This document shows, one piece after another, positions 1 to 63,479 of a stretch of 64,000 nt of DNA; position 1 is the stretch's first letter, and each line of letters starts with the position of its first letter. Location of the stretch: IMG/VR virus record IMGVR_UViG_3300010355_000481; one strand, given 5' to 3'. The stretch comes from an uncultured virus (IMG/VR IMGVR_UViG_3300010355_000481). Its lineage: Duplodnaviria; Heunggongvirae; Uroviricota; Caudoviricetes; Crassvirales. The notes beneath the pieces were generated by a model. It was not told the DNA's origin. It ran no database searches and saw only the letters and a program-made list of their open reading frames with translations. The translations under genes and the position numbers were made by a program.

Positions 1-56
1 GTTTACTAATCCTGGGGTTACTTCTGATTTATATTGTACTAGATTATCTAAATTCA

Positions 57-3021: not shown

Positions 3022-4578
3022 TTATCCGCCGTAAGCGTTCATTAATCTTTTTAAATAATCTTCTTGTGTAGATGGTTGTTGTTTTGCTTGAAACATTTGT
3101 TTCATTATAGCATTCAAGATTATAGGATGTTGTTCTAAAATCGGATTGTTTTGTATCAATGAATTAACCTGTTGCATTTGTGATTGCATAGTAGGTGTAT
3201 TCTGTTTATTCTTTACATCCCAAGCATATTGACGTTTCATACCTTCAATTGCCATATTATATTGCATATTCTCTTGGTACCCCTGCCCAAATAAATTAAG
3301 ATTAGTTGCTCCAATTTGACGACGACTATCATCGACATTTTGATACATCTCATTTAATTTATCTATATATGTAGCACGTTGATTATTATTGTTATTCAAC
3401 ACTTGGTTTTGGATCTCTGCATTTCTGTTTGCATTTGCAGTTAAAACATTTTGGTTTTGAATATTAACCTGGTTACCGTAATTCATAGCTTGCTCTGAGA
3501 ATTGAGTATCCATGAATTGTTTACGTGCCGTATTATCGGTACCGTATTGTTCAGTAGCTTTTCTAGTAGCGTACGCTTGCGATAATGCTGCATTTATTCC
3601 TTGCTGAGGGTCGATAGTTTGGGCTTGGGTTGTATACCCTGATTGTAAAGCTAAAGCCGGTGTATATGCTTTAGGCATTTGCATAAGATTTCCTGCCATA
3701 GAAATTAACTTTGGCGTCCAATCATATTTAGGAATCCAACTGAATTTATTTGGGTCTTCCTGAAAGTCTGCATTAAGGTCTTGACCGTTGCTGTAGTGTT
3801 GAGCAAGTAATGCATCCATATTCATAGGATTGGCTTTCATAATGTCTGATTGATATGTCGGTATAAAACCTACATTAGAGTTTAAAGCGTCCATACTAAT
3901 TCTTTTGCGCCCGCCTTCTGCGTATTTTCCTACCCAACCTCCTTTTGAATACTGCTTTGCAATACGATCTGATACGATATCTTGAGGTTGTAAATTTCCA
4001 TACTCAGGCAATTGTCCGTCTGGTTTACGTATTTCTTGAAGTGCAGCTATAGTACCTGCTTTTTGTTGATACTTTTCTGTCATCAACCTTGCTGTATTTT
4101 TCTCTGCAAAACTTTTTGAGTTTTCTAAGAAATCTAACATCTGGTTATTATGCTTGATATCAATATTGCGTTTGAATACTTTTGCCGGCGTATTATTTTT
4201 TAAACCACCTTTAGCGTATCCTCCTAATTTGAAGGTTTCTAACTCCTCTGGTGTCATAGCCATGGATTTATCTTTCGAGAAGATAAAAGATCCGTCAGGT
4301 ACATTTAATGGCGTACCTCCTTTAGAGTGTGGTTTACCTTTAATATCATGGAAACCAACACCTAACGGGTTAAATGATGATAAAATTTCCCCCTTCTCTG
4401 CTTCGATATTTGCAACTTCTTTATCTACGGCTTTCGCGGAAGTCGTAACTTCTTTAGATTCATTTCTATGTAAATAGGAAATTAGTCCTGACGGATTATA
4501 CCTTGGAGATATTCCAAAAGGGTTTACATTAGGATAATATCCTTTAAATGGTGAGTTAGGTGCTGTGTTAATAGGCAT
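3022..4578 (-). CDS. Putative virion cargo protein
   Basis: 518 aa; EAEKGE...GKPHSKGG segment; YAKGG/YSKGG/YAEGG motifs; Q/N-rich C-terminus. Confidence 0.55.
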   Translation of the reverse strand: MPINTAPNSPFKGYYPNVNPFGISPRYNPSGLISYLHRNESKEVTTSAKAVDKEVANIEAEKGEILSSFNPLGVGFHDIKGKPHSKGGTPLNVPDGSFIFSKDKSMAMTPEELETFKLGGYAKGGLKNNTPAKVFKRNIDIKHNNQMLDFLENSKSFAEKNTARLMTEKYQQKAGTIAALQEIRKPDGQLPEYGNLQPQDIVSDRIAKQYSKGGWVGKYAEGGRKRISMDALNSNVGFIPTYQSDIMKANPMNMDALLAQHYSNGQDLNADFQEDPNKFSWIPKYDWTPKLISMAGNLMQMPKAYTPALALQSGYTTQAQTIDPQQGINAALSQAYATRKATEQYGTDNTARKQFMDTQFSEQAMNYGNQVNIQNQNVLTANANRNAEIQNQVLNNNNNQRATYIDKLNEMYQNVDDSRRQIGATNLNLFGQGYQENMQYNMAIEGMKRQYAWDVKNKQNTPTMQSQMQQVNSLIQNNPILEQHPIILNAIMKQMFQAKQQPSTQEDYLKRLMNAYGG

Positions 4579-20948: not shown

Positions 20949-21190
20949 TATATGTTAACTTTTAAGGTTACTTTATATCCGTTATTTTTTTCTTTTATAT
21001 CGGAATCAGGGTGAGCGACTAATACGGTATCCATAATACGACCTAAACAGTGTTTACACTCGATTTGATCGATTAGTTTGTGTAGAAGTTCTCTACTTGT
21101 TTCAACCATATAAGATTGAATTGGCGCACCGTCTATCGATACCTGTAGCCCGTTAATGTCGTGGAATTTTGATTTTAGTTTAACTTTCAT
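20948..21190 (-). CDS. Hypothetical protein
   Basis: 80 aa, CKHC motif. Confidence 0.55.
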   Translation of the reverse strand: MKVKLKSKFHDINGLQVSIDGAPIQSYMVETSRELLHKLIDQIECKHCLGRIMDTVLVAHPDSDIKEKNNGYKVTLKVNI

Positions 21191-21287
21191 AGTGTAAATG
21201 TATGATTAATTTTTAGAATTAAAAGATAAATCTAAAAATAATTTATTTTATTTTTTATAGTTAAAAGCTGGAATTCATAGATGAACC

Positions 21288-22133
21288 CTACTTACTAGCT
21301 TCTAGTCCTATGGTATTAGGATAAGAATTATCAACCAATCCGATGATAGAACCTAAAAATGATCTACAAATTCCTTTTTTAGAAATGTGTATATGACATT
21401 CAGGTAATGAATGGGTTAACTCTTCTAATTCTGCTTGACAAGAAACTTTACCTAAAACTTGCATAACTACAGTTCTAGTTATAATTCCTAATTTGTGCAT
21501 ACGTCTTAATATTCTACCTCCGCTACTTTCAGACATTCCAAGTAGTCGGGCCATATGAGTTTTTCCAGATACGATGTATTGTTTATTTTTTGTTCGGGCA
21601 CGCTTCATCCAGTCGTCCGTAGTTATACCTAAAGCTGATGCACATTTTGCAACTTTCTTTAAGATACTGTTACGTTTCTTTTCGCTAGTAATTCTGTCAC
21701 CGATTCTATAATAAGCATCTTCTGTATCTTTCCATTTCTCGATACGGTATTGTTGTTGTTTAAAGTTTTTTAATACAAGACTATGTTGTATTTGGTGGTA
21801 TACTTTTTCCCATGTTAAAGGACCATTACATGTAAATCTTTTAAAACATTCAACGTATCTGTTGAACATTAAATTAGCTTCCCCCACGACACCATCATTT
21901 AGTATCGTACAGATATTGCTAAATTTAATTAAACGAATGGCACCTTTAGTTTGAATTAAAGTACCAGCTTTTAAACCACGGGATTTTATGCTTTGAAATC
22001 TTACTAAACCTAAACCTAAAGAAGCTGCAGCTTGATGATCCGTTTGAACACCATACTGCAATATACCATTATTCCTCATTTTAAGGAGGAAAGAGGCGTC
22101 TGTTAGTAATTTAAGTTTTAATAATTGTTGCAT
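21288..22133 (-). CDS. Basic HTH DNA-binding protein (possibly Rep-like); start revised to ATG 22133
   Basis: THMARLLGMSESSGGRILRRMHKLGII looks like a winged HTH; the longer predicted start runs through a terminator hairpin. Confidence 0.5.
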   Translation of the reverse strand: MQQLLKLKLLTDASFLLKMRNNGILQYGVQTDHQAAASLGLGLVRFQSIKSRGLKAGTLIQTKGAIRLIKFSNICTILNDGVVGEANLMFNRYVECFKRFTCNGPLTWEKVYHQIQHSLVLKNFKQQQYRIEKWKDTEDAYYRIGDRITSEKKRNSILKKVAKCASALGITTDDWMKRARTKNKQYIVSGKTHMARLLGMSESSGGRILRRMHKLGIITRTVVMQVLGKVSCQAELEELTHSLPECHIHISKKGICRSFLGSIIGLVDNSYPNTIGLEASK

Positions 22134-22167
22134 AAAAAAAAATCCTGAAGTATAACCTTCAGGATCC
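22134..22167 (-). terminator. Terminator directly upstream of the HTH gene ATG
   Basis: GGATCCTGAAG-GTTATA-CTTCAGGAT followed by a long U-tract. Confidence 0.7.
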
Positions 22168-22310
22168 TTTTTAGCCGAGACAAAATAATAATTGTTAATT
22201 ATTACAAATATAATTCTCTTTGTGGGAGAAATAAAATCTTTTTTAAACATTAACAATTCTATATTTTTGCTGCCTCGGCTAAGAGTAAACTAAGATATAC
22301 TTGTTACAAT

Positions 22311-22342
22311 CAAAGGTAAGTACTGGTATTGTATTTACCAAA
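22311..22342 (-). promoter_or_regulatory. Bacteroidota sigma-A type promoter
   Basis: TTTG-N20-TACCTTTG. Confidence 0.7.
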
Positions 22343-22360
22343 TATTTATTTATTTATTTG

Positions 22361-22450
22361 TGAGAGCAGTAGGAGTCGAACCTACAATCTTTACCATAAA
22401 GGACCTGATTTACAGTCAGGCAGCACAGACGCCATAGTGCTAATACTCCC
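22361..22450 (-). tRNA. tRNA-Tyr(GTA)
   Basis: CCTGA-CTGTAAA-TCAGG anticodon arm; long variable arm; GTTCGA T-loop. Confidence 0.9.
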
Positions 22451-22454
22451 AGAG

Positions 22455-22537
22455 AGGAAAATTGTGGACTCGAACCACAGTCCAATAAAGGACCTACACC
22501 CTTAGCAAGGGATCTCGAACCTATCGATTAACTTTCC
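22455..22537 (-). tRNA. tRNA-Ser(GCT)
   Basis: CCC-TTGCTAA-GGG anticodon arm; long variable arm. Confidence 0.8.
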
Positions 22538-22540
22538 ATG

Positions 22541-22629
22541 AGGTAGAGACAGGGTTCGAACCTGCACATCAGTTTTACCCGACATCACTGTTTTCAAGAC
22601 AGATAAGTACGCCAGCATTACGCTCTACC
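22541..22629 (-). tRNA. tRNA-Ser(TGA)
   Basis: CTGT-CTTGAAA-ACAG anticodon arm; long variable arm. Confidence 0.9.
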
Positions 22630-22633
22630 ATAG

Positions 22634-22715
22634 TGACCCTAGAGAGATTCGAACTCTCAATCCTCGCGGCAAGGGATTTTAAGTCCCTCATGTATCCCAG
22701 TTCCATCATAAGGCC
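22634..22715 (-). tRNA. tRNA-Leu(TAA)
   Basis: AGGGA-CTTAAAA-TCCCT anticodon arm. Confidence 0.9.
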
Positions 22716-22720
22716 AAGTG

Positions 22721-22764
22721 TACTCGTAGAGGGATTCGAACCCCCAAACCTTTCGGCACCGGTT
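22721..22764 (-). pseudogene. 3' half of an interrupted tRNA-Leu
   Basis: Variable arm, T-arm and acceptor strand TACGAGT-A; pairs with the 5' half at 23545-23580. Confidence 0.8.
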
Positions 22765-22765
22765 G

Positions 22766-22852
22766 TAAGAGAAGAGGGATTCGAACCCTCACGCTACTAT
22801 TATTTCGCTTTCGATTCTAAATCGAAATTGTCTACCATTCCAGCATTCTCCC
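22766..22852 (-). tRNA. tRNA-Leu(TAG), overlapping the 3' end of the HNH gene
   Basis: TTCGA-TTTAGAA-TCGAA anticodon arm; complete cloverleaf. Confidence 0.9.
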
Positions 22853-23492
22853 ATGCTTTTATCCATTTTCTAATACAATTATCAGATACCCCATATTCCT
22901 TACCTGTACCCACAAACCCTAACGAATTTATCTTTACTTTCAACACATCTAAACTTGGTCTATCTACTACTTTCCGTAAGTGGCTTCTACCTATCTTTTT
23001 ATACACCGCCTTTTTCCTTACAACTTTTTCTTTAATAGGTTTATCTTTTTTGAGCCTATCTCTAGTAACACTTGCATGACAATTTGGGCATAATATTTGT
23101 AAGTTACTTAATTCATTATTAAAATGATCACTATCAATATGATCAAGTTCTAATACTATAGGTTTACCTCCCCACTCTGATAAACAACATATCTCACATT
23201 TATATTCTTTGTAACCATCCCTTATTAATCTTTCCCTTAATTTAGCACTACTGGTTGGAAAATCTTTTTTACAGTACTCAAGAGCATCTTTTTTTGTAAA
23301 TTTTTTGTTTTTACGCCACCCTTGACCTAAAAAATAATCAGGGGTTTCTATTCCAAAAAATTTAGCTCTTCTAGTTAAATGAGACTGACTACCAGTCCTA
23401 GGGCGAATATTTAGTTTTCTACATACATCCGCCCACGATTTAGAACCAATTAAAGCCTTTTCTATTATTTCCTTTGTATATTTAATCTTCAT
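22800..23492 (-). CDS. HNH homing endonuclease
   Basis: CEIC...LELDHIDSDHFNNELSNLQILCPNCH; N- and C-terminal HTH-like segments. Confidence 0.9.
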   Translation of the reverse strand: MKIKYTKEIIEKALIGSKSWADVCRKLNIRPRTGSQSHLTRRAKFFGIETPDYFLGQGWRKNKKFTKKDALEYCKKDFPTSSAKLRERLIRDGYKEYKCEICCLSEWGGKPIVLELDHIDSDHFNNELSNLQILCPNCHASVTRDRLKKDKPIKEKVVRKKAVYKKIGRSHLRKVVDRPSLDVLKVKINSLGFVGTGKEYGVSDNCIRKWIKAWENAGMVDNFDLESKAK

Positions 23493-23544
23493 ACTAGTAT
23501 AGGTTATAATTTAAGATACAACATCTATACTAGAATCCAAAACA

Positions 23545-23580
23545 TAAAACTATCGTGTAGACCAATTCCACCATACGAGC
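23545..23580 (-). pseudogene. 5' half of the interrupted tRNA-Leu
   Basis: GCTCGTA-TGGTGGAATTGGTCTACACG-ATAGT-TTTA, broken at the anticodon. Confidence 0.8.
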
Positions 23581-23612
23581 AAAAAAAAATCCCCATCTGG
23601 AAAGACGGGGAC
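23581..23612 (-). terminator. Attenuator terminator of tRNA operon 1
   Basis: GTCCCCGTCT-TTCC-AGATGGGGAT plus U-tract abutting the first tRNA. Confidence 0.85.
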
Positions 23613-23638
23613 TAAAAATGCAAAATTAATATACATAG

Positions 23639-23701
23639 CTATCCCAGTCGATCCAATAGGCTCGATAACAGATAACTATATGACAAACGAAAATTCTTCA
23701 T
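23639..23701 (-). CDS. Leader peptide 1 MKNFRLSYSYLLSSLLDRLG
   Basis: 11 consecutive Leu/Ser/Tyr codons; lies between promoter and terminator. Confidence 0.85.
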   Translation of the reverse strand: MKNFRLSYSYLLSSLLDRLG

Positions 23702-23707
23702 TACAAT

Positions 23708-23739
23708 CAAAGATAGGTTACTCATTTTAAACTACCAAA
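23708..23739 (-). promoter_or_regulatory. Promoter of tRNA operon 1
   Basis: TTTG-N20-TATCTTTG. Confidence 0.75.
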
Positions 23740-23757
23740 TATTTCTTTACTTTTTTG

Positions 23758-23828
23758 TGGATACTGTTGGATTCGAACCAAATACTATCTCATTGCAAGT
23801 GAGAAGTGCTACCATCGCATCAGCCTCA
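23758..23828 (-). tRNA. tRNA-Ala(TGC)
   Basis: TCTCA-CTTGCAA-TGAGA anticodon arm; imperfect acceptor stem. Confidence 0.75.
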
Positions 23829-23832
23829 TGTG

Positions 23833-23905
23833 TAGGATTACCTGGATTTGAACCAGGAACGCTTGAGTATCAGTCAAGTATAATAACCAATTTTAATATA
23901 ATCCT
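23833..23905 (-). tRNA. tRNA-Ile(GAT)
   Basis: CTTGA-CTGATAC-TCAAG anticodon arm. Confidence 0.85.
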
Positions 23906-23910
23906 AAATG

Positions 23911-23984
23911 TTGATCCTCAGAGTCTCGAACTCTGTACCTCGCGATTATGAGTCGCACGCTCTAACCGGATGAGCTAAGGATCG
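23911..23984 (-). tRNA. tRNA with CAT anticodon, probably Ile2 (lysidine)
   Basis: GCGA-CTCATAA-TCGC arm and D-arm resemble bacterial tRNA-Ile2; C1:A72 mismatch leaves fMet possible. Confidence 0.75.
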
Positions 23985-23989
23985 ATATG

Positions 23990-24060
23990 CAGTCTATACG
24001 AGACTCGAACTCGTTTCCCCACCGTGACAAGGTGAGAGGATACCCATACCCCAATAGACT
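23990..24060 (-). tRNA. tRNA-Asp(GTC)
   Basis: TCACC-TTGTCAC-GGTGG anticodon arm. Confidence 0.85.
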
Positions 24061-24067
24061 ATTTTTG

Positions 24068-24139
24068 TACTCCTAACGGGAATCGAACCCGTGTCTGCTC
24101 ATGGAAAGTGAGCTATCCTAACCGCTAGAAGATAGGAGC
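24068..24139 (-). tRNA. tRNA-Glu(TTC)
   Basis: GCTCA-CTTTCCA-TGAGC anticodon arm. Confidence 0.9.
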
Positions 24140-24144
24140 AAATG

Positions 24145-24215
24145 TGCAGTATGTAGGAGTCAAACCTACGCAACTTGATTGGAAGTCAAGGGTGCTATCG
24201 TAACACTTATACTGC
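24145..24215 (-). tRNA. tRNA-Gly(TCC)
   Basis: CTTGA-CTTCCAA-TCAAG anticodon arm. Confidence 0.85.
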
Positions 24216-24280
24216 ATGTATATGTAATCACATATAAATTGATAGTTTATACTATTTTTATATGTAAAAACATATGATTG

Positions 24281-24362
24281 TAGCGGGGGTCCGATTCGAA
24301 CGGACGTCTTTTATTTTTCCAGGTTATGAGTCTGGTGACCTCAACCACTAGTCCACCCCGCC
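24281..24362 (-). tRNA. tRNA-Met(CAT) with enlarged A-rich variable loop
   Basis: CCAGA-CTCATAA-CCTGG anticodon arm; acceptor GGCGGGG/CCCCGCT. Confidence 0.8.
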
Positions 24363-24365
24363 ATG

Positions 24366-24439
24366 CGGACAACGTAGGGCTCGAACCTACTATCCTCTGT
24401 TTAACAAACAGCCGCTTATACCACTTAAGCTTCTCGTCC
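24366..24439 (-). tRNA. tRNA-Asn(GTT)
   Basis: CTGT-TTGTTAA-ACAG anticodon arm. Confidence 0.85.
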
Positions 24440-24449
24440 AGTATTTTTG

Positions 24450-24522
24450 CAGATCTGCAGGGATTCAAACCCTGATAAACTCCTTAGAACGAAGTTGTCC
24501 TATTCAGTTAAACGACAGATCT
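24450..24522 (-). tRNA. tRNA-Arg(TCT)
   Basis: ACTTC-GTTCTAA-GGAGT anticodon arm. Confidence 0.85.
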
Positions 24523-24528
24523 ATGTTG

Positions 24529-24601
24529 TTGGATGACAGAGAATCGAACTCTGGACTCCTCCTTGTAAGGGAGGGATGATTAACCACTTCACCATCTTCC
24601 A
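24529..24601 (-). tRNA. tRNA-Val(TAC)
   Basis: CCTCC-CTTACAA-GGAGG anticodon arm. Confidence 0.85.
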
Positions 24602-24610
24602 ATATTTTTG

Positions 24611-24683
24611 TACCCCTGCCGAGAGTCGAACTCGGCCCCACGGATTAAAAGTCCGTTGCCTACTACCAGTTTGCTACAAGGGT
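24611..24683 (-). tRNA. tRNA-Lys(TTT)
   Basis: ACGGA-CTTTTAA-TCCGT anticodon arm. Confidence 0.9.
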
Positions 24684-24689
24684 AAAAAT

Positions 24690-24721
24690 AAAAAACCCCG
24701 GTAGCTATCTGGCTCCGGGGT
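24690..24721 (-). terminator. Attenuator terminator of tRNA operon 2
   Basis: ACCCCGGAGC-CAGATA-GCTACCGGGGT plus U-tract. Confidence 0.85.
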
Positions 24722-24743
24722 CTTCTAAAAGTTTTATATACAC

Positions 24744-24809
24744 TTAGACATAAATAGACCCGGAGCCAGACTTCTCATCTGCCACTCTCCCGATAATATT
24801 TATGATCAT
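24744..24809 (-). CDS. Leader peptide 2 MIINIIGRVADEKSGSGSIYV (alternative GTG start at 24821)
   Basis: First 13 codons use exactly the ten amino acids of the downstream tRNAs. Confidence 0.85.
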   Translation of the reverse strand: MIINIIGRVADEKSGSGSIYV

Positions 24810-24839
24810 TATTTGTTGCACTATTTAAATTTTATGTTA

Positions 24840-24847
24840 CAAATGTA
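24840..24847 (-). promoter_or_regulatory. Promoter (-7 box) of tRNA operon 2
   Basis: TACATTTG. Confidence 0.6.
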
Positions 24848-24903
24848 ACGCTGTTTATAATTCAAGTTACATCTTTATTTGATAATAACAAATTTTTTGC
24901 TAA

Positions 24904-25104
24904 TTATTTTTTAAATTTCTTTTCGTAGACTTCTATCATCTTATTATGATAATTTAATAACCCAGTTTCATTAGTAATATTTCCATTAGGTATTCTGAAT
25001 TTATTTTTATCAATCTTTTTTACAAAAATATCTGATTCAGTTAAACCAGTAGTAATCAATACACTATTTACTGTTTTCTTTAATTTCTCTATACTTATAT
25101 TCAT
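24904..25104 (-). CDS. Hypothetical protein between tRNA operons
   Basis: 66 aa; own TATCTTTG box just upstream. Confidence 0.55.
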   Translation of the reverse strand: MNISIEKLKKTVNSVLITTGLTESDIFVKKIDKNKFRIPNGNITNETGLLNYHNKMIEVYEKKFKK

Positions 25105-25133
25105 AATGCAAAGATAAGTCTTTTATTTTAAAG

Positions 25134-25206
25134 TTTTCCAGACAGGACTCGAACCTGTACCCTCGAATCCGTAGTCCGAGATCCTATCCAATTAAACGAC
25201 AGGAAA
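25134..25206 (-). tRNA. tRNA-Arg(ACG)
   Basis: TCGGA-CTACGGA-TTCGA anticodon arm. Confidence 0.85.
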
Positions 25207-25212
25207 ATATAG

Positions 25213-25284
25213 AGTGACTAGCCGGGCTCGAACCGGTCGATAACTACCCCACAAGTAGTCGTGTTACCACTACACTATAGCCAC
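25213..25284 (-). tRNA. tRNA-His(GTG)
   Basis: ACTAC-TTGTGGG-GTAGT anticodon arm. Confidence 0.9.
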
Positions 25285-25286
25285 GG

Positions 25287-25357
25287 TTTTCCCACCTAGA
25301 TTCGAACTAGGAAATTCAGCTCCAAAAACTGACGTGTTACCGTTACACTATGAGAAA
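25287..25357 (-). tRNA. tRNA-Gln(TTG)
   Basis: TCAGT-TTTTGGA-GCTGA anticodon arm. Confidence 0.9.
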
Positions 25358-25362
25358 ATAAG

Positions 25363-25436
25363 AGCTTCTTTACAGACTCGAACTGTATCTATTCCTGATT
25401 ACAAGTCAGGTGCTGCACCATATCAGCATAAGAAGC
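25363..25436 (-). tRNA. tRNA-Thr(TGT)
   Basis: CCTGA-CTTGTAA-TCAGG anticodon arm. Confidence 0.9.
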
Positions 25437-25471
25437 AAAATTGTTTACCTCATCAATAAGGTAAACATTTG

Positions 25472-25548
25472 TGGTACAGACTGGATTCGAACCAGTACAA
25501 ATTTCCCAGGGCTTCAACCTAGAGCTCTACCGTTGGAGCTACTGCACC
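25472..25548 (-). tRNA. tRNA-Phe(GAA)
   Basis: CTAGG-TTGAAGC-CCTGG anticodon arm. Confidence 0.9.
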
Positions 25549-25553
25549 ATAAG

Positions 25554-25629
25554 AGACCGGAACCAGAATCGAACTGGCATTAAATAGGATTTGCAGTTCT
25601 ATGCCTTTTCCAATATTGGCTATCCGATC
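25554..25629 (-). tRNA. tRNA-Cys(GCA)
   Basis: TAGAA-CTGCAAA-TCCTA anticodon arm; U discriminator. Confidence 0.85.
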
Positions 25630-25633
25630 ATTG

Positions 25634-25704
25634 CGTGACGACAGGGATTCGAACCCCGATCAATGGTTTTGGAGACCACCATGCTACCGTTGCACCACCT
25701 TCAC
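25634..25704 (-). tRNA. tRNA-Trp(CCA)
   Basis: GTGGT-CTCCAAA-ACCAT anticodon arm. Confidence 0.9.
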
Positions 25705-25708
25705 AAGT

Positions 25709-25791
25709 CAAGCCAGGTTAGGTCATTACTCCTAATTTTTTACCTTAATCGGTACTGAGGATGTACTAGTATCTTTCCTCCCCTCCAGCTT
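25709..25791 (-). ncRNA. tRNA-sized cloverleaf-like RNA of unknown type
   Basis: Closing stem plus three hairpins; occupies a slot in the tRNA array; no canonical T-loop or anticodon loop. Confidence 0.45.
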
Positions 25792-25793
25792 TG

Positions 25794-25866
25794 TCTACAT
25801 GACCCGATTCGAACAGGCGAAAACTTGGTCCCAAACCAAGTGGATTAACCCCTCTCCCACATGTAG
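25794..25866 (-). tRNA. tRNA-Pro(TGG)
   Basis: CTTGG-TTTGGGA-CCAAG anticodon arm. Confidence 0.9.
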
Positions 25867-25871
25867 AAAAT

Positions 25872-25898
25872 AAAAAACCCTCCGTATTCGGGAGGGTT
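25872..25898 (-). terminator. Attenuator terminator of tRNA operon 3
   Basis: AACCCTCC-CGAATAC-GGAGGGTT plus U-tract. Confidence 0.85.
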
Positions 25899-25920
25899 CA
25901 GTTTAGTAATTATATGATAA

Positions 25921-25992
25921 CTACACTACATAACCCTCCAGCTTGGTAAACCAAGGTTGTTGAGGACATGTATGTGTGCGATTTGTTTTCAT
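25921..25992 (-). CDS. Leader peptide 3 MKTNRTHTCPQQPWFTKLEGYVV
   Basis: 12 consecutive codons using exactly R,T,H,C,P,Q,W,F, the downstream tRNA set. Confidence 0.85.
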   Translation of the reverse strand: MKTNRTHTCPQQPWFTKLEGYVV

Positions 25993-26031
25993 AAATTATA
26001 ATAAGCTTTAGATTTGCATCTAGCCTACAAT

Positions 26032-26062
26032 CAAAGATAAGTCAAGTTTTTATATTTCCAAA
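26032..26062 (-). promoter_or_regulatory. Promoter of tRNA operon 3
   Basis: TTTG-N19-TATCTTTG. Confidence 0.75.
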
Positions 26063-26135
26063 TATTTGTCCAGTTTTTTTCTAAATAAACTGGACATTTC
26101 TTTTGCGATAAGTATCGTAAAGTGATACATAACGC

Positions 26136-26163
26136 AAAAAAAGTCCCCCAAGAATGGAGGACT
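26136..26163 (-). terminator. Terminator of the structural operon
   Basis: AGTCCTCCATTCTTGGGGACTTTTTTT. Confidence 0.7.
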
Positions 26164-26209
26164 CTAAACTCACTTTAAACCAATAAAGAGGGAGTTTTAA
26201 CCAATAAGA

Positions 26210-26329
26210 TTAAGCCGCTTTTTTCATACGTGGTAATTGCGACCATTTAATGCTACAACCTCTACGTGGACAGCCAGTCGAAGCTTTAGTACGAGGTTTT
26301 GTTATTTTAAATAAGGTTTTCTTTTTCAT
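26210..26329 (-). CDS. Small basic protein (39 aa), absent from the ORF track
   Basis: MKKKTLFKITKPRTKASTGCPRRGCSIKWSQLPRMKKAA; fills the gap between fibre gene and terminator. Confidence 0.55.
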   Translation of the reverse strand: MKKKTLFKITKPRTKASTGCPRRGCSIKWSQLPRMKKAA

Positions 26330-26340
26330 ATTATATATTT

Positions 26341-28797
26341 TTATATTAAATCAATTGTTACACCTTCGAAACTGATATAGATATTTCTAGTAGTATTTAC
26401 ACTAGACATCATTACTCCAGTATGCGTTTCGTTTGTATCATCACGGTATGAAGTATAGTTTCTTTCTAATTGGAATACCGTACCTGCTTTTTTCAAGTTA
26501 AAATTAACGTGAGTATTAACCGAATCATTGATTACGACAGAAGAATAACTATACACTCCATGGCGTTGATAAATAGAATCTTTTAAACCGTAGTTAGCAT
26601 TACTACTCGGTAATGGGTATCCACATAATGATAAACCAGTTGCGTTGAATATATCATCTACGATAGTAGCTTCTGCAAAAGCAGCTGAAACAGAACCTAA
26701 CACGACGATCGATGGCCCAGAAGAGAAATCTTTATATACCCCACCTCTAAACTTCAATTTATTATTTTCTACGATATATTCTAAACCATCAGGTAACCAA
26801 GCATTTTGTAAAATACCAGAAGGTACCGCTTGGTATGAAGTACATGCAGTTGGTACATAACCCAATGTAGTTGTGTATACTGCAGAAACCCCAGTAGTTA
26901 ACAAAGAGCATTGTCTTGTGACTTGGATATTTAAAGTATGAGGGATCTTCGTACCGAAGAAAGGCATCGATACTACTGTCTTAGCGAAAGTAGGGTTATA
27001 CGTTGATACTAAGGCGATAACATGTGCAGGATTTCCAGATACGTTTGTATAATCTACTTTTACCGAAACCATATCATCATCGTTGGCGCCTAACCAACCA
27101 ACTAATAGGTTTGTATCATCTCCGTCATTTTGGATAACAAAACTAATTTCAGGAGCAGTTACTGTAGCACAAGGGTTTGTACTTTGTAATTTAAGATCTA
27201 TTAAACCACAATCGGTACCACTTGGATCCTGAACAATAGATATGCTATTATCAGAAGAAGTAAAGTGAATATCTTCGGAAGGGTTTAACATAATTGAAGC
27301 CCATTCGCCATCACCGTTAGTACATTTTGCACGAACACGTGCACCTAAAATATCACAAGAAATACTAGGGAAAGCCGTCATATTATATTTAAGTATACCA
27401 GAAGCTACACTTACATAATTAGCATCACCATTTATCCATGTTAATGGTGAACCGGTAGTACCTCTAAATTCAACTTCATAATCGGTATTAATACTTGTAT
27501 GACCAGAAAATTCAAATATAAAGTTAGTCCCATCATTGTAAAGACGTAAACCGTACGCAAGTAAAGGAGATTGTACAAATACTCCCCCGTCGGTACCAGC
27601 TTGTGCAGCATTACAAGTATCTGTCGAATATGAAACAGGGCTACTTGGTACATATAAACCATTACCTGTATTCACCAAAATATTACCGCCAGTAAGTGTA
27701 TCTATATTTACATCGGCTTTAATACCTGCAGCATCACTTGATAAAGTAACGGAAGAAGTATTTTGGAAAATAACATCAGATTTAATGATATTACCTGGAA
27801 GGATAGTCATGTTTACAGTATCAGTATCTGATATCGAAACAGCACCAGAAGCCATCGGTACGTACAACCCAGTCGGCAATACTTGTAAGGCATTCGTACC
27901 CGATGGATCAAGTATAACTTGAGATGACAAATTATATCCACCTAATATAGGCGTTAAAGTATGACCTACTGATGGGCTATTTGCCGTAGTAAGTAATGTA
28001 TTTCCAGAAGGGCAACATCCGATGTTTATACCATTAGGGCCGTAAGTAATTGGCGCAGCACTTGCAGGGTCAAATCTAACTTGAGCACTTACTTGATAAT
28101 TATTACCTGAAGGAGTTACTGTTATATCGACTGAAGAAGTATCTAAACCAGAAACTGTAGTTGCAGGACCAGAAGTTGTTGGTGGTGCAACATATAAACC
28201 ATTAGGTCCAACTTGGATAGCATTACCAGGAGTTGTATCTATTTTAACAAGAGATTGGACTGAATATCCACCTACTGTAGGAAGCACGGTAGTATCTACT
28301 GTATTTGTATCGATACCTACTAATGTTGTACTTGCCGTAGACGGTGATGGACATGCCATATATAAACCATCTGACAAAATTTGTAAACAGTTATTAGAAG
28401 TAGCTGACAATCTTACGGCTGCAACTAATTGTTCATTTAGGCCGACATTTGTATTAAGGATACTGACAGAACTGCTACCTACAATCTTATCACTTAGGTA
28501 GCCTGATGTACTATCAGATGCAGAAGCTTTTACCCTAATATCGGTAGCTGTTACGACGATATTTCCACAAAGTTTTTGTGCGAAGCTTTCAAATACATCT
28601 GTAAATGAAGTCCCTTTTAAAATAGTATCGGCACAAACCGTTAAATCTTTCGATAAAAATAAACAATCACCCCAGTTAGGGTGTAAACATCCTGTAGTAC
28701 AAGGAGTTGGAGGGCAAGGTTGTGGGTTACAATTACAAGGACAAGGCGTACCACAAGGGTCTGGGCAGCATTTATTACAAGTTGTGTGGTGAGACAT
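26341..28797 (-). CDS. Fibre/spike structural protein
   Basis: 818 aa; Cys/Pro-rich N-terminus; repeated N(A/C)(L/I)QxxxxGLY units. Confidence 0.65.
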   Translation of the reverse strand: MSHHTTCNKCCPDPCGTPCPCNCNPQPCPPTPCTTGCLHPNWGDCLFLSKDLTVCADTILKGTSFTDVFESFAQKLCGNIVVTATDIRVKASASDSTSGYLSDKIVGSSSVSILNTNVGLNEQLVAAVRLSATSNNCLQILSDGLYMACPSPSTASTTLVGIDTNTVDTTVLPTVGGYSVQSLVKIDTTPGNAIQVGPNGLYVAPPTTSGPATTVSGLDTSSVDITVTPSGNNYQVSAQVRFDPASAAPITYGPNGINIGCCPSGNTLLTTANSPSVGHTLTPILGGYNLSSQVILDPSGTNALQVLPTGLYVPMASGAVSISDTDTVNMTILPGNIIKSDVIFQNTSSVTLSSDAAGIKADVNIDTLTGGNILVNTGNGLYVPSSPVSYSTDTCNAAQAGTDGGVFVQSPLLAYGLRLYNDGTNFIFEFSGHTSINTDYEVEFRGTTGSPLTWINGDANYVSVASGILKYNMTAFPSISCDILGARVRAKCTNGDGEWASIMLNPSEDIHFTSSDNSISIVQDPSGTDCGLIDLKLQSTNPCATVTAPEISFVIQNDGDDTNLLVGWLGANDDDMVSVKVDYTNVSGNPAHVIALVSTYNPTFAKTVVSMPFFGTKIPHTLNIQVTRQCSLLTTGVSAVYTTTLGYVPTACTSYQAVPSGILQNAWLPDGLEYIVENNKLKFRGGVYKDFSSGPSIVVLGSVSAAFAEATIVDDIFNATGLSLCGYPLPSSNANYGLKDSIYQRHGVYSYSSVVINDSVNTHVNFNLKKAGTVFQLERNYTSYRDDTNETHTGVMMSSVNTTRNIYISFEGVTIDLI

Positions 28798-63049: not shown

Positions 63050-63479
63050 ACAAAAAAGGTTATGTTTTTTAACATAAACCTTAATTGAAGACACTCTACC
63101 AACTCACCGGAGCCACTGAGGCTGTATATAGTCAAATAGTCCAAAACTACATACATTTAACTTTGCTTCCATGATATCTATAACACCTTGATTTTATCGC
63201 CTATTTATAGGCATGGGGAGGGGGATTTATAGGTTTATGTCACCATCTTCGGTTGTCTTATCCATCCTTCGAGATAATTTACCCGGTAAGACTACATTCT
63301 GCTTATTTTCTTCGCCAGAATTGCGCCAGACCACTTCCTAATGTGTTAAACACAAAAAAGCCAGGCATTACACCTGGCTCTTATGTTTTCCAGGTGGAGA
63401 GACTCACCTGAAAATATCGTCGAAGAAAAACTCTTACTATATTAACTGTAAGAGTCTCTCTTTCTTACAATCAAAGGTA
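63050..63479 (-). ncRNA. Candidate antisense-oriented structured ncRNA locus
   Basis: TTTG-N19-TACCTTTG promoter (-7 box 63472-63479); several hairpins; two terminator-like structures; no ORF in the track. Confidence 0.45.

Follow-up and report, generated by a model that had tools for sequence, protein, structure and literature searches.

A likely leader-peptide attenuator upstream of a Leu/Ser/Tyr tRNA block in a distant crAss-like phage

Here we analyse a 64,000-nucleotide stretch of DNA from an uncultured virus (IMG/VR record IMGVR_UViG_3300010355_000481), hereafter the window, and more particularly the segment 23581-23715 on its minus strand, which precedes an HNH homing-endonuclease gene and five tRNA genes for Leu, Ser and Tyr. 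The sequence of this segment and its modelled structure make it likely that it is a ribosome-mediated leader-peptide attenuator, exerting feedback control on the supply of phage tRNAs. The unit is ordered as a promoter-like motif, a short open reading frame (ORF), a terminator and then the genes. The original prediction, made from the letters of the window without database searches, was that this segment is an attenuator that senses Leu, Ser and Tyr codons, and what it stated about the letters themselves proved correct throughout. Structure modelling, two sister leaders of the window and the covariation of leaders and tRNA blocks in other phages all support its core reading.

Leader codons and the tRNA blocks that follow them

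The leader ORF (23639..23701, minus strand, ATG at 23701 and stop at 23641-23639) has 20 codons followed by TAG and reads MKNFRLSYSYLLSSLLDRLG; its codons are ATG AAG AAT TTT CGT TTG TCA TAT AGT TAT CTG TTA TCG AGC CTA TTG GAT CGA CTG GGA TAG, and an alternative in-frame ATG upstream, at 23725, would give a peptide of 28 amino acids (aa). Its centre is an uninterrupted run of 11 Leu, Ser and Tyr codons (TTG TCA TAT AGT TAT CTG TTA TCG AGC CTA TTG; 23654..23686, minus strand). As had been claimed, these codons match the anticodons of the operon: under strict wobble, each of the 11 can be read by one of the five downstream tRNAs, and the run contains nine of the ten codons that are strictly cognate to them. 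Codons cognate to this block make up 15.0% of the background (13,997 codons in 31 long ORFs). Among all cognate runs in the six frames of the window, this one of 11 codons has the greatest length, the runner-up having a length of 6, and a run of 11 anywhere in 64 kb was attained in only one of 200 mononucleotide shuffles. In the leader region, the set Leu, Ser and Tyr has the unique top score among all 1140 sets of three amino acids.

The further claim that no CTY or TCY codon is used is correct for the window leader, but the absence is no more than modestly improbable (P = 0.036) when conditioned on the peptide and on the synonymous codon usage of the phage, and three relatives described below (L006, L060 and L072) use CTT, CTC or TCC. 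Taken together with the occurrence of nine distinct codons, the lack of CTY and TCY in the window leader gives P = 6.8e-4, for a statistic that was picked post hoc. Strict exclusivity at the level of codons is, in our view, weakly supported by these sequences.

The same organization is found twice more in the window. The leader 2 unit (24688-24809, minus strand) has an ORF (24809-24744) that reads MIINIIGRVADEKSGSGSIYV, with the matched stretch MIINIIGRVADEK, and is followed by 11 tRNAs (Lys, Val, Arg(tct), Asn, Met(cat), Gly, Glu, Asp, Met(cat), Ile and Ala); the first 13 codons are all cognate to these 11 tRNAs, ATA being counted on the assumption that one of the CAT tRNAs is of the Ile2 type. 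The leader 3 unit (25862-25992, minus strand) has an ORF (25992-25921) that reads MKTNRTHTCPQQPWFTKLEGYVV, followed by eight tRNAs (Pro, Trp, Cys, Phe, Thr, Gln, His and Arg(acg)), and its matched stretch RTHTCPQQPWFT covers all eight amino acids of the block, with CCT (twice) and ACC requiring four-way wobble by U34. When all amino-acid sets of the same size are scored, the set of the downstream block ranks 836th of 184,756 for leader 2 and 55th of 125,970 for leader 3. Both units consist of an ORF and a terminator and follow the same footprint-dependent fold logic as leader 1 (see below), with antiterminator strands located inside the end of the ORF (TCTGGCTCCGGG in leader 2 and GGAGGGTT in leader 3). 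The strong minus-strand terminators detected in 22000-26500, namely two attenuator hairpins and one after a conserved 39-aa ORF, all come after short ORFs, and no block has one behind its last tRNA, in favour of the attenuator reading.

Folding of the leader RNA, promoter-like motif and proposed mechanism

Four segments with three alternative pairings are predicted in the leader transcript. Segments 1 and 2 form a 12-bp hairpin of -19.1 kcal/mol (23633..23681, minus strand) between ATATAGTTATCT (23681-23670) and GGATAGCTATGT (23644-23633); segment 1 lies inside the Ser/Tyr codons, and segment 2 corresponds to the last codon, the stop codon and 6 nt beyond. Segments 2 and 3 form an antiterminator of -18.7 kcal/mol (23598..23655, minus strand), in which 23655-23641 pairs with 23612-23598, that is, TTGGA-TC-GAC-T-GGGAT with GTCCC-C-GTC-TT-TCCA, the latter belonging to the 5' arm and loop of the terminator. 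Segments 3 and 4 form an intrinsic terminator of -15.7 kcal/mol (23581..23613, minus strand), composed of an 11-bp stem (23613-23588) and a run of nine T ending at 23581. The pairing proposed earlier between the leader end GACTGGGA and the terminator arm TCCCCGTC, at seven of eight positions, is present, and folding extends it to 12 bp in three helices. The complete leader folds with an energy of -41.1 kcal/mol, compared with -23.8 +/- 3.0 kcal/mol for shuffled sequences (z = -5.7), and none of the 200 shuffles was as good.

To model translation, a 28-nt ribosome footprint was placed at each A-site position. In the full transcript, the probability of the terminator is 0.25-0.00 with the A site on codons 7-12 and 0.77-0.95 elsewhere, including the stop codon, and the antiterminator is the minimum-energy fold when the Leu/Ser/Tyr codons are under the footprint. 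A footprint on codons 1-5 does not disturb the 1:2 helix, and the terminator then has a probability of 0.95; the unconstrained minimum-energy fold contains the 1:2 helix and the terminator together. Co-transcriptional folding with the ribosome footprint masked, which the original prediction had put forward as a check, was modelled by cutting the transcript just before the 3' arm of the terminator emerges: the paired fraction of the 5' arm is then 0.69-0.72 with the A site on codons 5-14, 0.46 on codon 15 and 0.05-0.17 on codons 16-21. The fold thus changes over where the Leu/Ser/Tyr run ends, in a check that is independent of codon identity. In silico, a footprint on the late codons or on the stop codon favours the terminator, in agreement with the earlier proposal that a ribosome at the stop codon masks the leader end and allows termination.

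A translation-independent element, such as a T-box-like or other ligand-binding RNA that senses directly, would also be a structured leader ahead of translation-related genes, yet we give this explanation a next to negligible probability: the ORF is conserved with its start and stop, the fold switches at a point that follows the reading frame, and no Rfam family reaches its gathering score at 23582-23672 (the best is anti-hemB, with 23.9 against 49.5 bits). The Rfam leader families (Leu, Thr, His, Trp and Phe) have no match at 23581-23715. Across 21000-27000, the sole Rfam leader match is Phe_leader at 26135-26208, with 26.9 against 55 bits, and the T-box has no Rfam match at E <= 1.

The leader ORF is preceded by a promoter-like element (23702..23739, minus strand) composed of TTTG (23739-23736), 20 nt and the box TATCTTTG (23715-23708), which we take to resemble the Bacteroidota -33/-7 consensus; the tRNA-Ala of the preceding block ends upstream of it, at 23757. 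The pattern TTTG-N18-22-TAnnTTTG has seven matches in the window for 3.0 expected. The box extends to the 14-mer TATCTTTGATTGTA (23715-23702), which ends one base before the ATG at 23701. This 14-nt motif, TAYCTTTGATTGTA, occurs in four exact copies, all on the minus strand (22305-22318, 23702-23715, 26026-26039 and 63466-63479) and each about 20 nt past a TTTGG; with up to two mismatches there are nine matches, a number that none of 100 shuffles attains. The repeated motif is probably the phage's own type of promoter, judging from these occurrences.

The ATG lies 6 nt after the box TATCTTTG, as previously noted. A leaderless start of the mRNA is plausible because the 14-mer ends one base before the ATG and because two leaders of the cultured phage Calle_1 (see below) have their ATG 4 nt past the box, but it is weakly supported: the ATG of the L006 leader sits 1 nt past the stop of an upstream ORF, and the L072 leader has an untranslated region of about 75 nt, so that such a start is not conserved in these two relatives. 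In the window, a -7 box closely followed by an ATG is not enriched (11 cases for 9.1 expected from 200 shuffles). The attenuator does not need a leaderless start, because transcripts running on from the preceding tRNA block would include the ORF as well. Elsewhere in the array, a 66-aa ORF located between tRNA blocks (25104-24904, minus strand) begins 4 nt past a TATCTTTG box, and its mRNA may also be leaderless. In crAss001 (L070), at 1640-1681, a box TTATCTTTG is followed after 4 nt by an ORF of four codons (MIRR*) that immediately precedes tRNA-Gln and tRNA-Arg, with no terminator.

In the mechanism that we propose, a short mRNA carrying the 20-codon ORF would be made either from the element at 23739-23702 or by transcription running on from the preceding tRNA block. 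When decoding is slow, owing to a scarcity of charged Leu, Ser or Tyr tRNA, a ribosome on the run would cover segment 1 and segment 2 would pair with segment 3; this 2:3 pairing would block the terminator, and the polymerase would enter the HNH gene and the five tRNA genes. When decoding is fast, a ribosome at the last codons or at the stop would cover segment 2, and the 3:4 terminator would form. If the leader is not translated, segment 1 would hold segment 2 and the terminator would form as well. A shortage of any one of the five tRNAs would fire the switch, which would thus behave as an OR gate. As read-through yields just those tRNAs that can relieve the stall, the outcome would be a negative feedback on decoding capacity. 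The analysis shows the features of the sequence, the alternative folds and how these shift with the masked footprint, and the matching with its covariation across phages; the transcription start, leader translation, ribosome stalling and the physiological trigger (the cause of tRNA depletion) are components of the scheme that we infer.

Leaders in other phages and the weight of the evidence

Three relatives (L001, L002 and L006) were reached through an exonuclease gene located 4 kb from the leader; L006 and the contigs with leaders described next (L072, L060, L044 and L068) are metagenomic. In L006 (57% identity), the leader MKNNLSYSYLSLSLKTEQV and a terminator different from that of the window lie directly before Leu(tag), Leu(taa), Ser(tga), a tRNA-like stretch with no ARAGORN call, and Tyr. 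A 99.8-kb contig found by the variable-arm pattern of tRNA-Leu(tag), L072, carries MKRLSSYYLSLSLYAASGDSMFIS and a terminator before Leu, Leu, Ser, Ser and Tyr, and a second unit in which MKMFTTHTRFWQPQPQGMRGLRVRD and a terminator precede Pro, Thr .. Gln, Arg and Trp. L060 has MKTITSYYSSLSLLIKSRAGRTM before Leu, Ser, Ser and Tyr. In two other contigs, L044 and L068, leaders of the LQRQQLLQ(LL) type, reading MRITLQRQQLLQPLQ.. and MRTLTLQRQQLLQLL.. respectively, precede Arg(acg), Leu(tag) and Gln(ttg). The peptides of the leader 1 type, from four contigs, share the pattern MK..LS.YYLSLSL; the terminator occupies the same place in these four leaders, with nine consensus pairs, five of which have compensatory changes on both sides. 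Compared sequence by sequence, L006, L072 and L060 also have a 1:2 helix over the Ser/Tyr codons; this helix was not recovered by MAFFT/RNAalifold, in which its 3' strand is misaligned in L072.

L006 also carries a homologue of the third leader of the window (3821-3886), in which an in-frame TAA (MKLNRTHTCFF*) stands at the position of the window's Pro-Gln-Gln and the frame resumes with PWFT...; the tRNA calls of L006 list no tRNA-Gln, and this could be either a truncated leader or a recoded stop. Odd tRNA-like genes are present inside the arrays of L006 (4406-4460) and L072 (2371-2450, reverse strand): one has an apparent 9-nt anticodon loop, and for the other, which directly follows a terminator of the leader 1 type, ARAGORN gives a 4-base anticodon (aaca).

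The four-contig family of peptides could be taken as a sign that the short ORF makes a functional hydrophobic peptide, with a composition that reflects peptide function and not codon sensing. This appears highly improbable, as what is conserved is composition and RNA pairing, the nucleotide conservation of TCATAT..T fits the 1:2 helix, and the sister leaders differ widely in composition, each mirroring its own block. The relatives also bear on another explanation, in which the hairpin 23613-23581 is the operon-end terminator of the preceding tRNA block, the ORF occurs by chance, and the HNH and tRNA genes have their own promoter. The hairpin lies 145 nt past tRNA-Ala (23757) and no other terminator follows that block. 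A degenerate promoter-like box, recognized by eye, is in addition present between the terminator and the HNH start. Against this explanation, the conserved 14-nt promoter motif is upstream and not downstream of the hairpin, the 11 matched codons are the longest run of the window, and the same unit of ORF and terminator directly abuts the tRNAs in L006, L072 and L060. Moreover, the third leader comes after another terminator and a promoter motif, and its hairpin therefore cannot be an operon end. We consider an operon-end terminator very unlikely.

Searching cultured phages by blastn with the whole array and with the class II block gave only HNH and generic tRNA matches, and led to Cellulophaga phage Calle_1 (MT732432, Pervagoviridae; L079/L080), a phage that, like its Bacteroidota host, is in culture. 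Calle_1 has three codon-matched units of leader and terminator on the reverse strand, at about 34318, 32738 and 31498, each behind a repeated promoter-like sequence. The first leader, MKTIMNIATDIRTKGVKLLGRSRVL, precedes Ala (recognized by eye, with no ARAGORN call), Lys, Ile, Gly, Met, Asp, Thr, Val, Arg and Ile; the second, MKTNMTYNNFSWYSNCSFSSYNVERLYLS, precedes Tyr, Ser, Ser, Asn, Trp, Phe and Cys; and the third, MNARLLHQEPLEQLRLPSRVSYHGIDELS, precedes Pro, Glu, Gln, His, one tRNA of uncertain identity, Leu and Arg. The sets of these blocks rank 259th of 167,960, first of 38,760 and second of 38,760, respectively. In units 1 and 2 the fold changes over where the matched run ends; in unit 3 this is less clear. 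The two Calle_1 leaders with an ATG 4 nt past the box have the same geometry as the leader of the window. On this subject the genome paper of the phage gives only the number of tRNAs, 20; it does not mention the units and has no word starting with 'attenuat' or 'leader' (PMC8776804).

The tRNAs of Calle_1 are partitioned differently from those of the window, Leu being grouped with Pro, Glu, Gln, His and Arg, and Tyr and Ser with Asn, Trp, Phe and Cys. The Calle_1 leaders track their own partition: Leu codons are present in the leader of the tRNA-Leu block and absent from the matched run of the Tyr/Ser leader. When seven leaders (window 1-3, L068 and Calle_1 1-3) are assigned to their seven blocks in all ways, the true pairing alone among 5040 permutations attains the observed score. 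The limitation of each leader to the amino acids of its own block, shifting with the block partition, would not be needed in a general gauge, that is, an attenuator that is real but responds to general translation status or amino-acid starvation, not to a shortage of specific tRNAs. Such a gauge is unlikely, even though attenuators of the trp and his type sense decoding rate via charged tRNA, and decoding rate depends on charged tRNA, so that a lack of amino acid has the appearance of a lack of tRNA; the single codons for many tRNAs in other leaders, with their weak per-codon sensitivity, also fit a general gauge.

Several observations weigh against an attenuator dedicated to tRNA supply. Amino-acid starvation is not cured by extra tRNA, and the sensor cannot tell starvation from a tRNA shortage. 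The antiterminator has internal loops. The HNH gene, absent from the original prediction, stands between the attenuator and the tRNAs, and the degenerate box mentioned above (TTTG, 19 nt, TATCTTAA), located in the 89-nt stretch that separates the terminator from the HNH gene, could give attenuator-independent expression. The L072 ORF extends six codons beyond segment 2, which a ribosome at the stop would leave unmasked. When the full leaders of L006, L060 and L044 are folded at equilibrium, the terminator has a probability of at least 0.93 at every ribosome position, and the switch in these three leaders rests on the co-transcriptional argument. The distribution of the leaders is also patchy. 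We scanned 98 distinct regions upstream of tRNA blocks, from 44 viral loci anchored on tRNA-Leu(taa) and from the window, L006 and L001: no such leader is found in 92 of them (score <=4), and the remaining six (window leaders 2 and 3, L006, L060, L044 and L068) score 8-14 and each have a T-run no more than 60 nt away from the first tRNA. The close relative L001 (57% identity) has Ser, Ser and Tyr tRNAs without a leader. In crAss001, no codon-matched ORF with a terminator is present in the 12 inter-tRNA gaps covered, which are all but the one of 524 nt.

L002 has no tRNAs, and no relatives were found via an 818-aa neighbour protein. A 19-nt leader pattern gave 15 IMG/VR matches that we took as chance, 14 of them without a tRNA and one (L013) with tRNAs on the opposite strand only.

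The tRNA array, its surroundings and comparison with known systems

The window, on the strength of its sequence, is from a distant crAss-like phage: it has family matches to the terminase, portal, major head protein and giant virion protein, and its terminase is about 27% identical to known Crassvirales terminases, an identity too low for terminase relatives to provide usable synteny. The minus strand holds nearly all long ORFs from 1 to 50 kb. The stretch is present as DNA in runs labelled activated sludge or wastewater; among the four runs compared, at the level of DNA contigs, the contigs of one span 22369-23911, and the sole difference sits in the HNH gene.

The array comprises 24 tRNA genes, on the minus strand between 25866 and 22360. 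ARAGORN at default settings yields 21 of them, and Asn(gtt), Gly(tcc) and Ala(tgc) come from Rfam and a relaxed ARAGORN threshold. The gated block (22360..22852, minus strand; ARAGORN and Rfam) runs from Leu(tag) (22852-22765) through Leu(taa) (22715-22633), Ser(tga) (22629-22540) and Ser(gct) (22537-22454) to Tyr(gta) (22450-22360), all on the minus strand. The five are 83-91 nt long, as expected of tRNAs with long variable arms. The statement that the operon holds exactly the class II tRNAs is consistent with these lengths but is weakened by a tRNA(CAT) of 83 nt in the neighbouring block. There are two tRNA(CAT) genes in the window (24280-24362 and 23910-23984, both on the minus strand): the 83-nt one has an unpaired, A-rich variable region of 14 nt, and in the other the acceptor stem is topped by a C1 x A72 mismatch, a feature of bacterial initiator tRNAs. 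At 24368-24444, the contig of one wastewater run has 78 different letters in place of 75 nt that hold tRNA-Asn, which suggests that tRNA genes are swapped between strains.

The HNH homing-endonuclease ORF (22800..23492, minus strand; 230 aa; phrog_10822, E = 3.9e-43) starts 89 nt past the terminator, and its final 53 nt are shared with tRNA-Leu(tag). L006, L072 and L060 lack an HNH gene at the equivalent position, their T-run lying directly against the first tRNA, and we read the gene from this comparison as a secondary insertion that is now inside the gated unit. Just upstream of the array, the 39-aa ORF already mentioned (26210-26329, minus strand) ends with ..MKKAA and has a Cys-x-x-x-Gly-Cys stretch; it is followed by a strong terminator (26165-26140) and has homologues at the equivalent site in L001 and L006.

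Phage tRNAs have been described as standing in for host tRNAs that are depleted during infection by tRNA-targeting immunity; these two papers cover the function of phage tRNAs, and their accessible parts make no mention of the control of tRNA synthesis (PMC11464382, PMC11555353). Such tRNA-cleaving defences would be a plausible trigger for the leader switch. A broader and tentative idea, which we hold to be possible but doubtful, is that of a codon-resolved 'tRNA-stat', in which three OR-gated sensors would monitor all 24 tRNA species, each inducing only the block that contains the limiting tRNA. The trigger would be the loss of host tRNA in infection, for which host anticodon nucleases, other tRNA-targeting immunity and a phage-driven decay of the host translation machinery are candidates, and the array would constitute an inducible counter-defence, widespread in Bacteroidota phages.

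The interest of the attenuator reading is that the regulated product is a set of tRNAs: the sensed step and the supplied product involve the same molecule, which would give direct feedback on decoding capacity. If true, this would explain how phages with large tRNA arrays avoid constitutive tRNA synthesis, and phage tRNAs that counter tRNA-cleaving defences would become inducible responses. The leaders would also be a natural read-out of which tRNA the phage takes to read which codon. As they occur in Cellulophaga phage Calle_1, which is cultured along with its host, the idea is directly testable. In the literature searched, which was that outside subscription journals, we found no account of leader-peptide attenuation of tRNA genes; in its accessible parts, one paper mentions a tRNA operon only in another context (PMC3082878).

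The comparison with known systems can be made at three levels. The T-box binds uncharged tRNA without translation and controls synthetase, transporter and biosynthesis genes. Like the T-box, the phage element would read out the state of specific tRNAs through a choice between terminator and antiterminator, but it would do so through a translated ORF, and no T-box match was found. The enterobacterial leaders include multivalent ones, such as thrL for Thr and Ile and ilvL for Ile, Leu and Val, as well as leuL, hisL, trpL and pheL. The phage element has in common with such amino-acid-operon leaders, whose general mechanism is documented (PMC1183508, in the part accessible), a short ORF with regulatory codons, the exclusive pairings 1:2, 2:3 and 3:4, a terminator before the genes and more than one amino acid per leader. 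In contrast with these leaders, it would gate tRNA genes and a homing endonuclease, with a product that acts on the sensed step, and it differs from the Rfam leader families in that it has no likeness to them in sequence or covariance model. To our knowledge, leader-peptide attenuation is known only for amino-acid biosynthesis genes and one synthetase operon. The latter is pheST, in which an attenuator with the pheM leader controls phenylalanyl-tRNA synthetase and senses a single amino acid. The phage element resembles pheST in that attenuation would bear on a component of the translation apparatus and not on amino-acid synthesis, and departs from it in that the leader would control the tRNAs themselves and would sense three amino acids, through five tRNA species.

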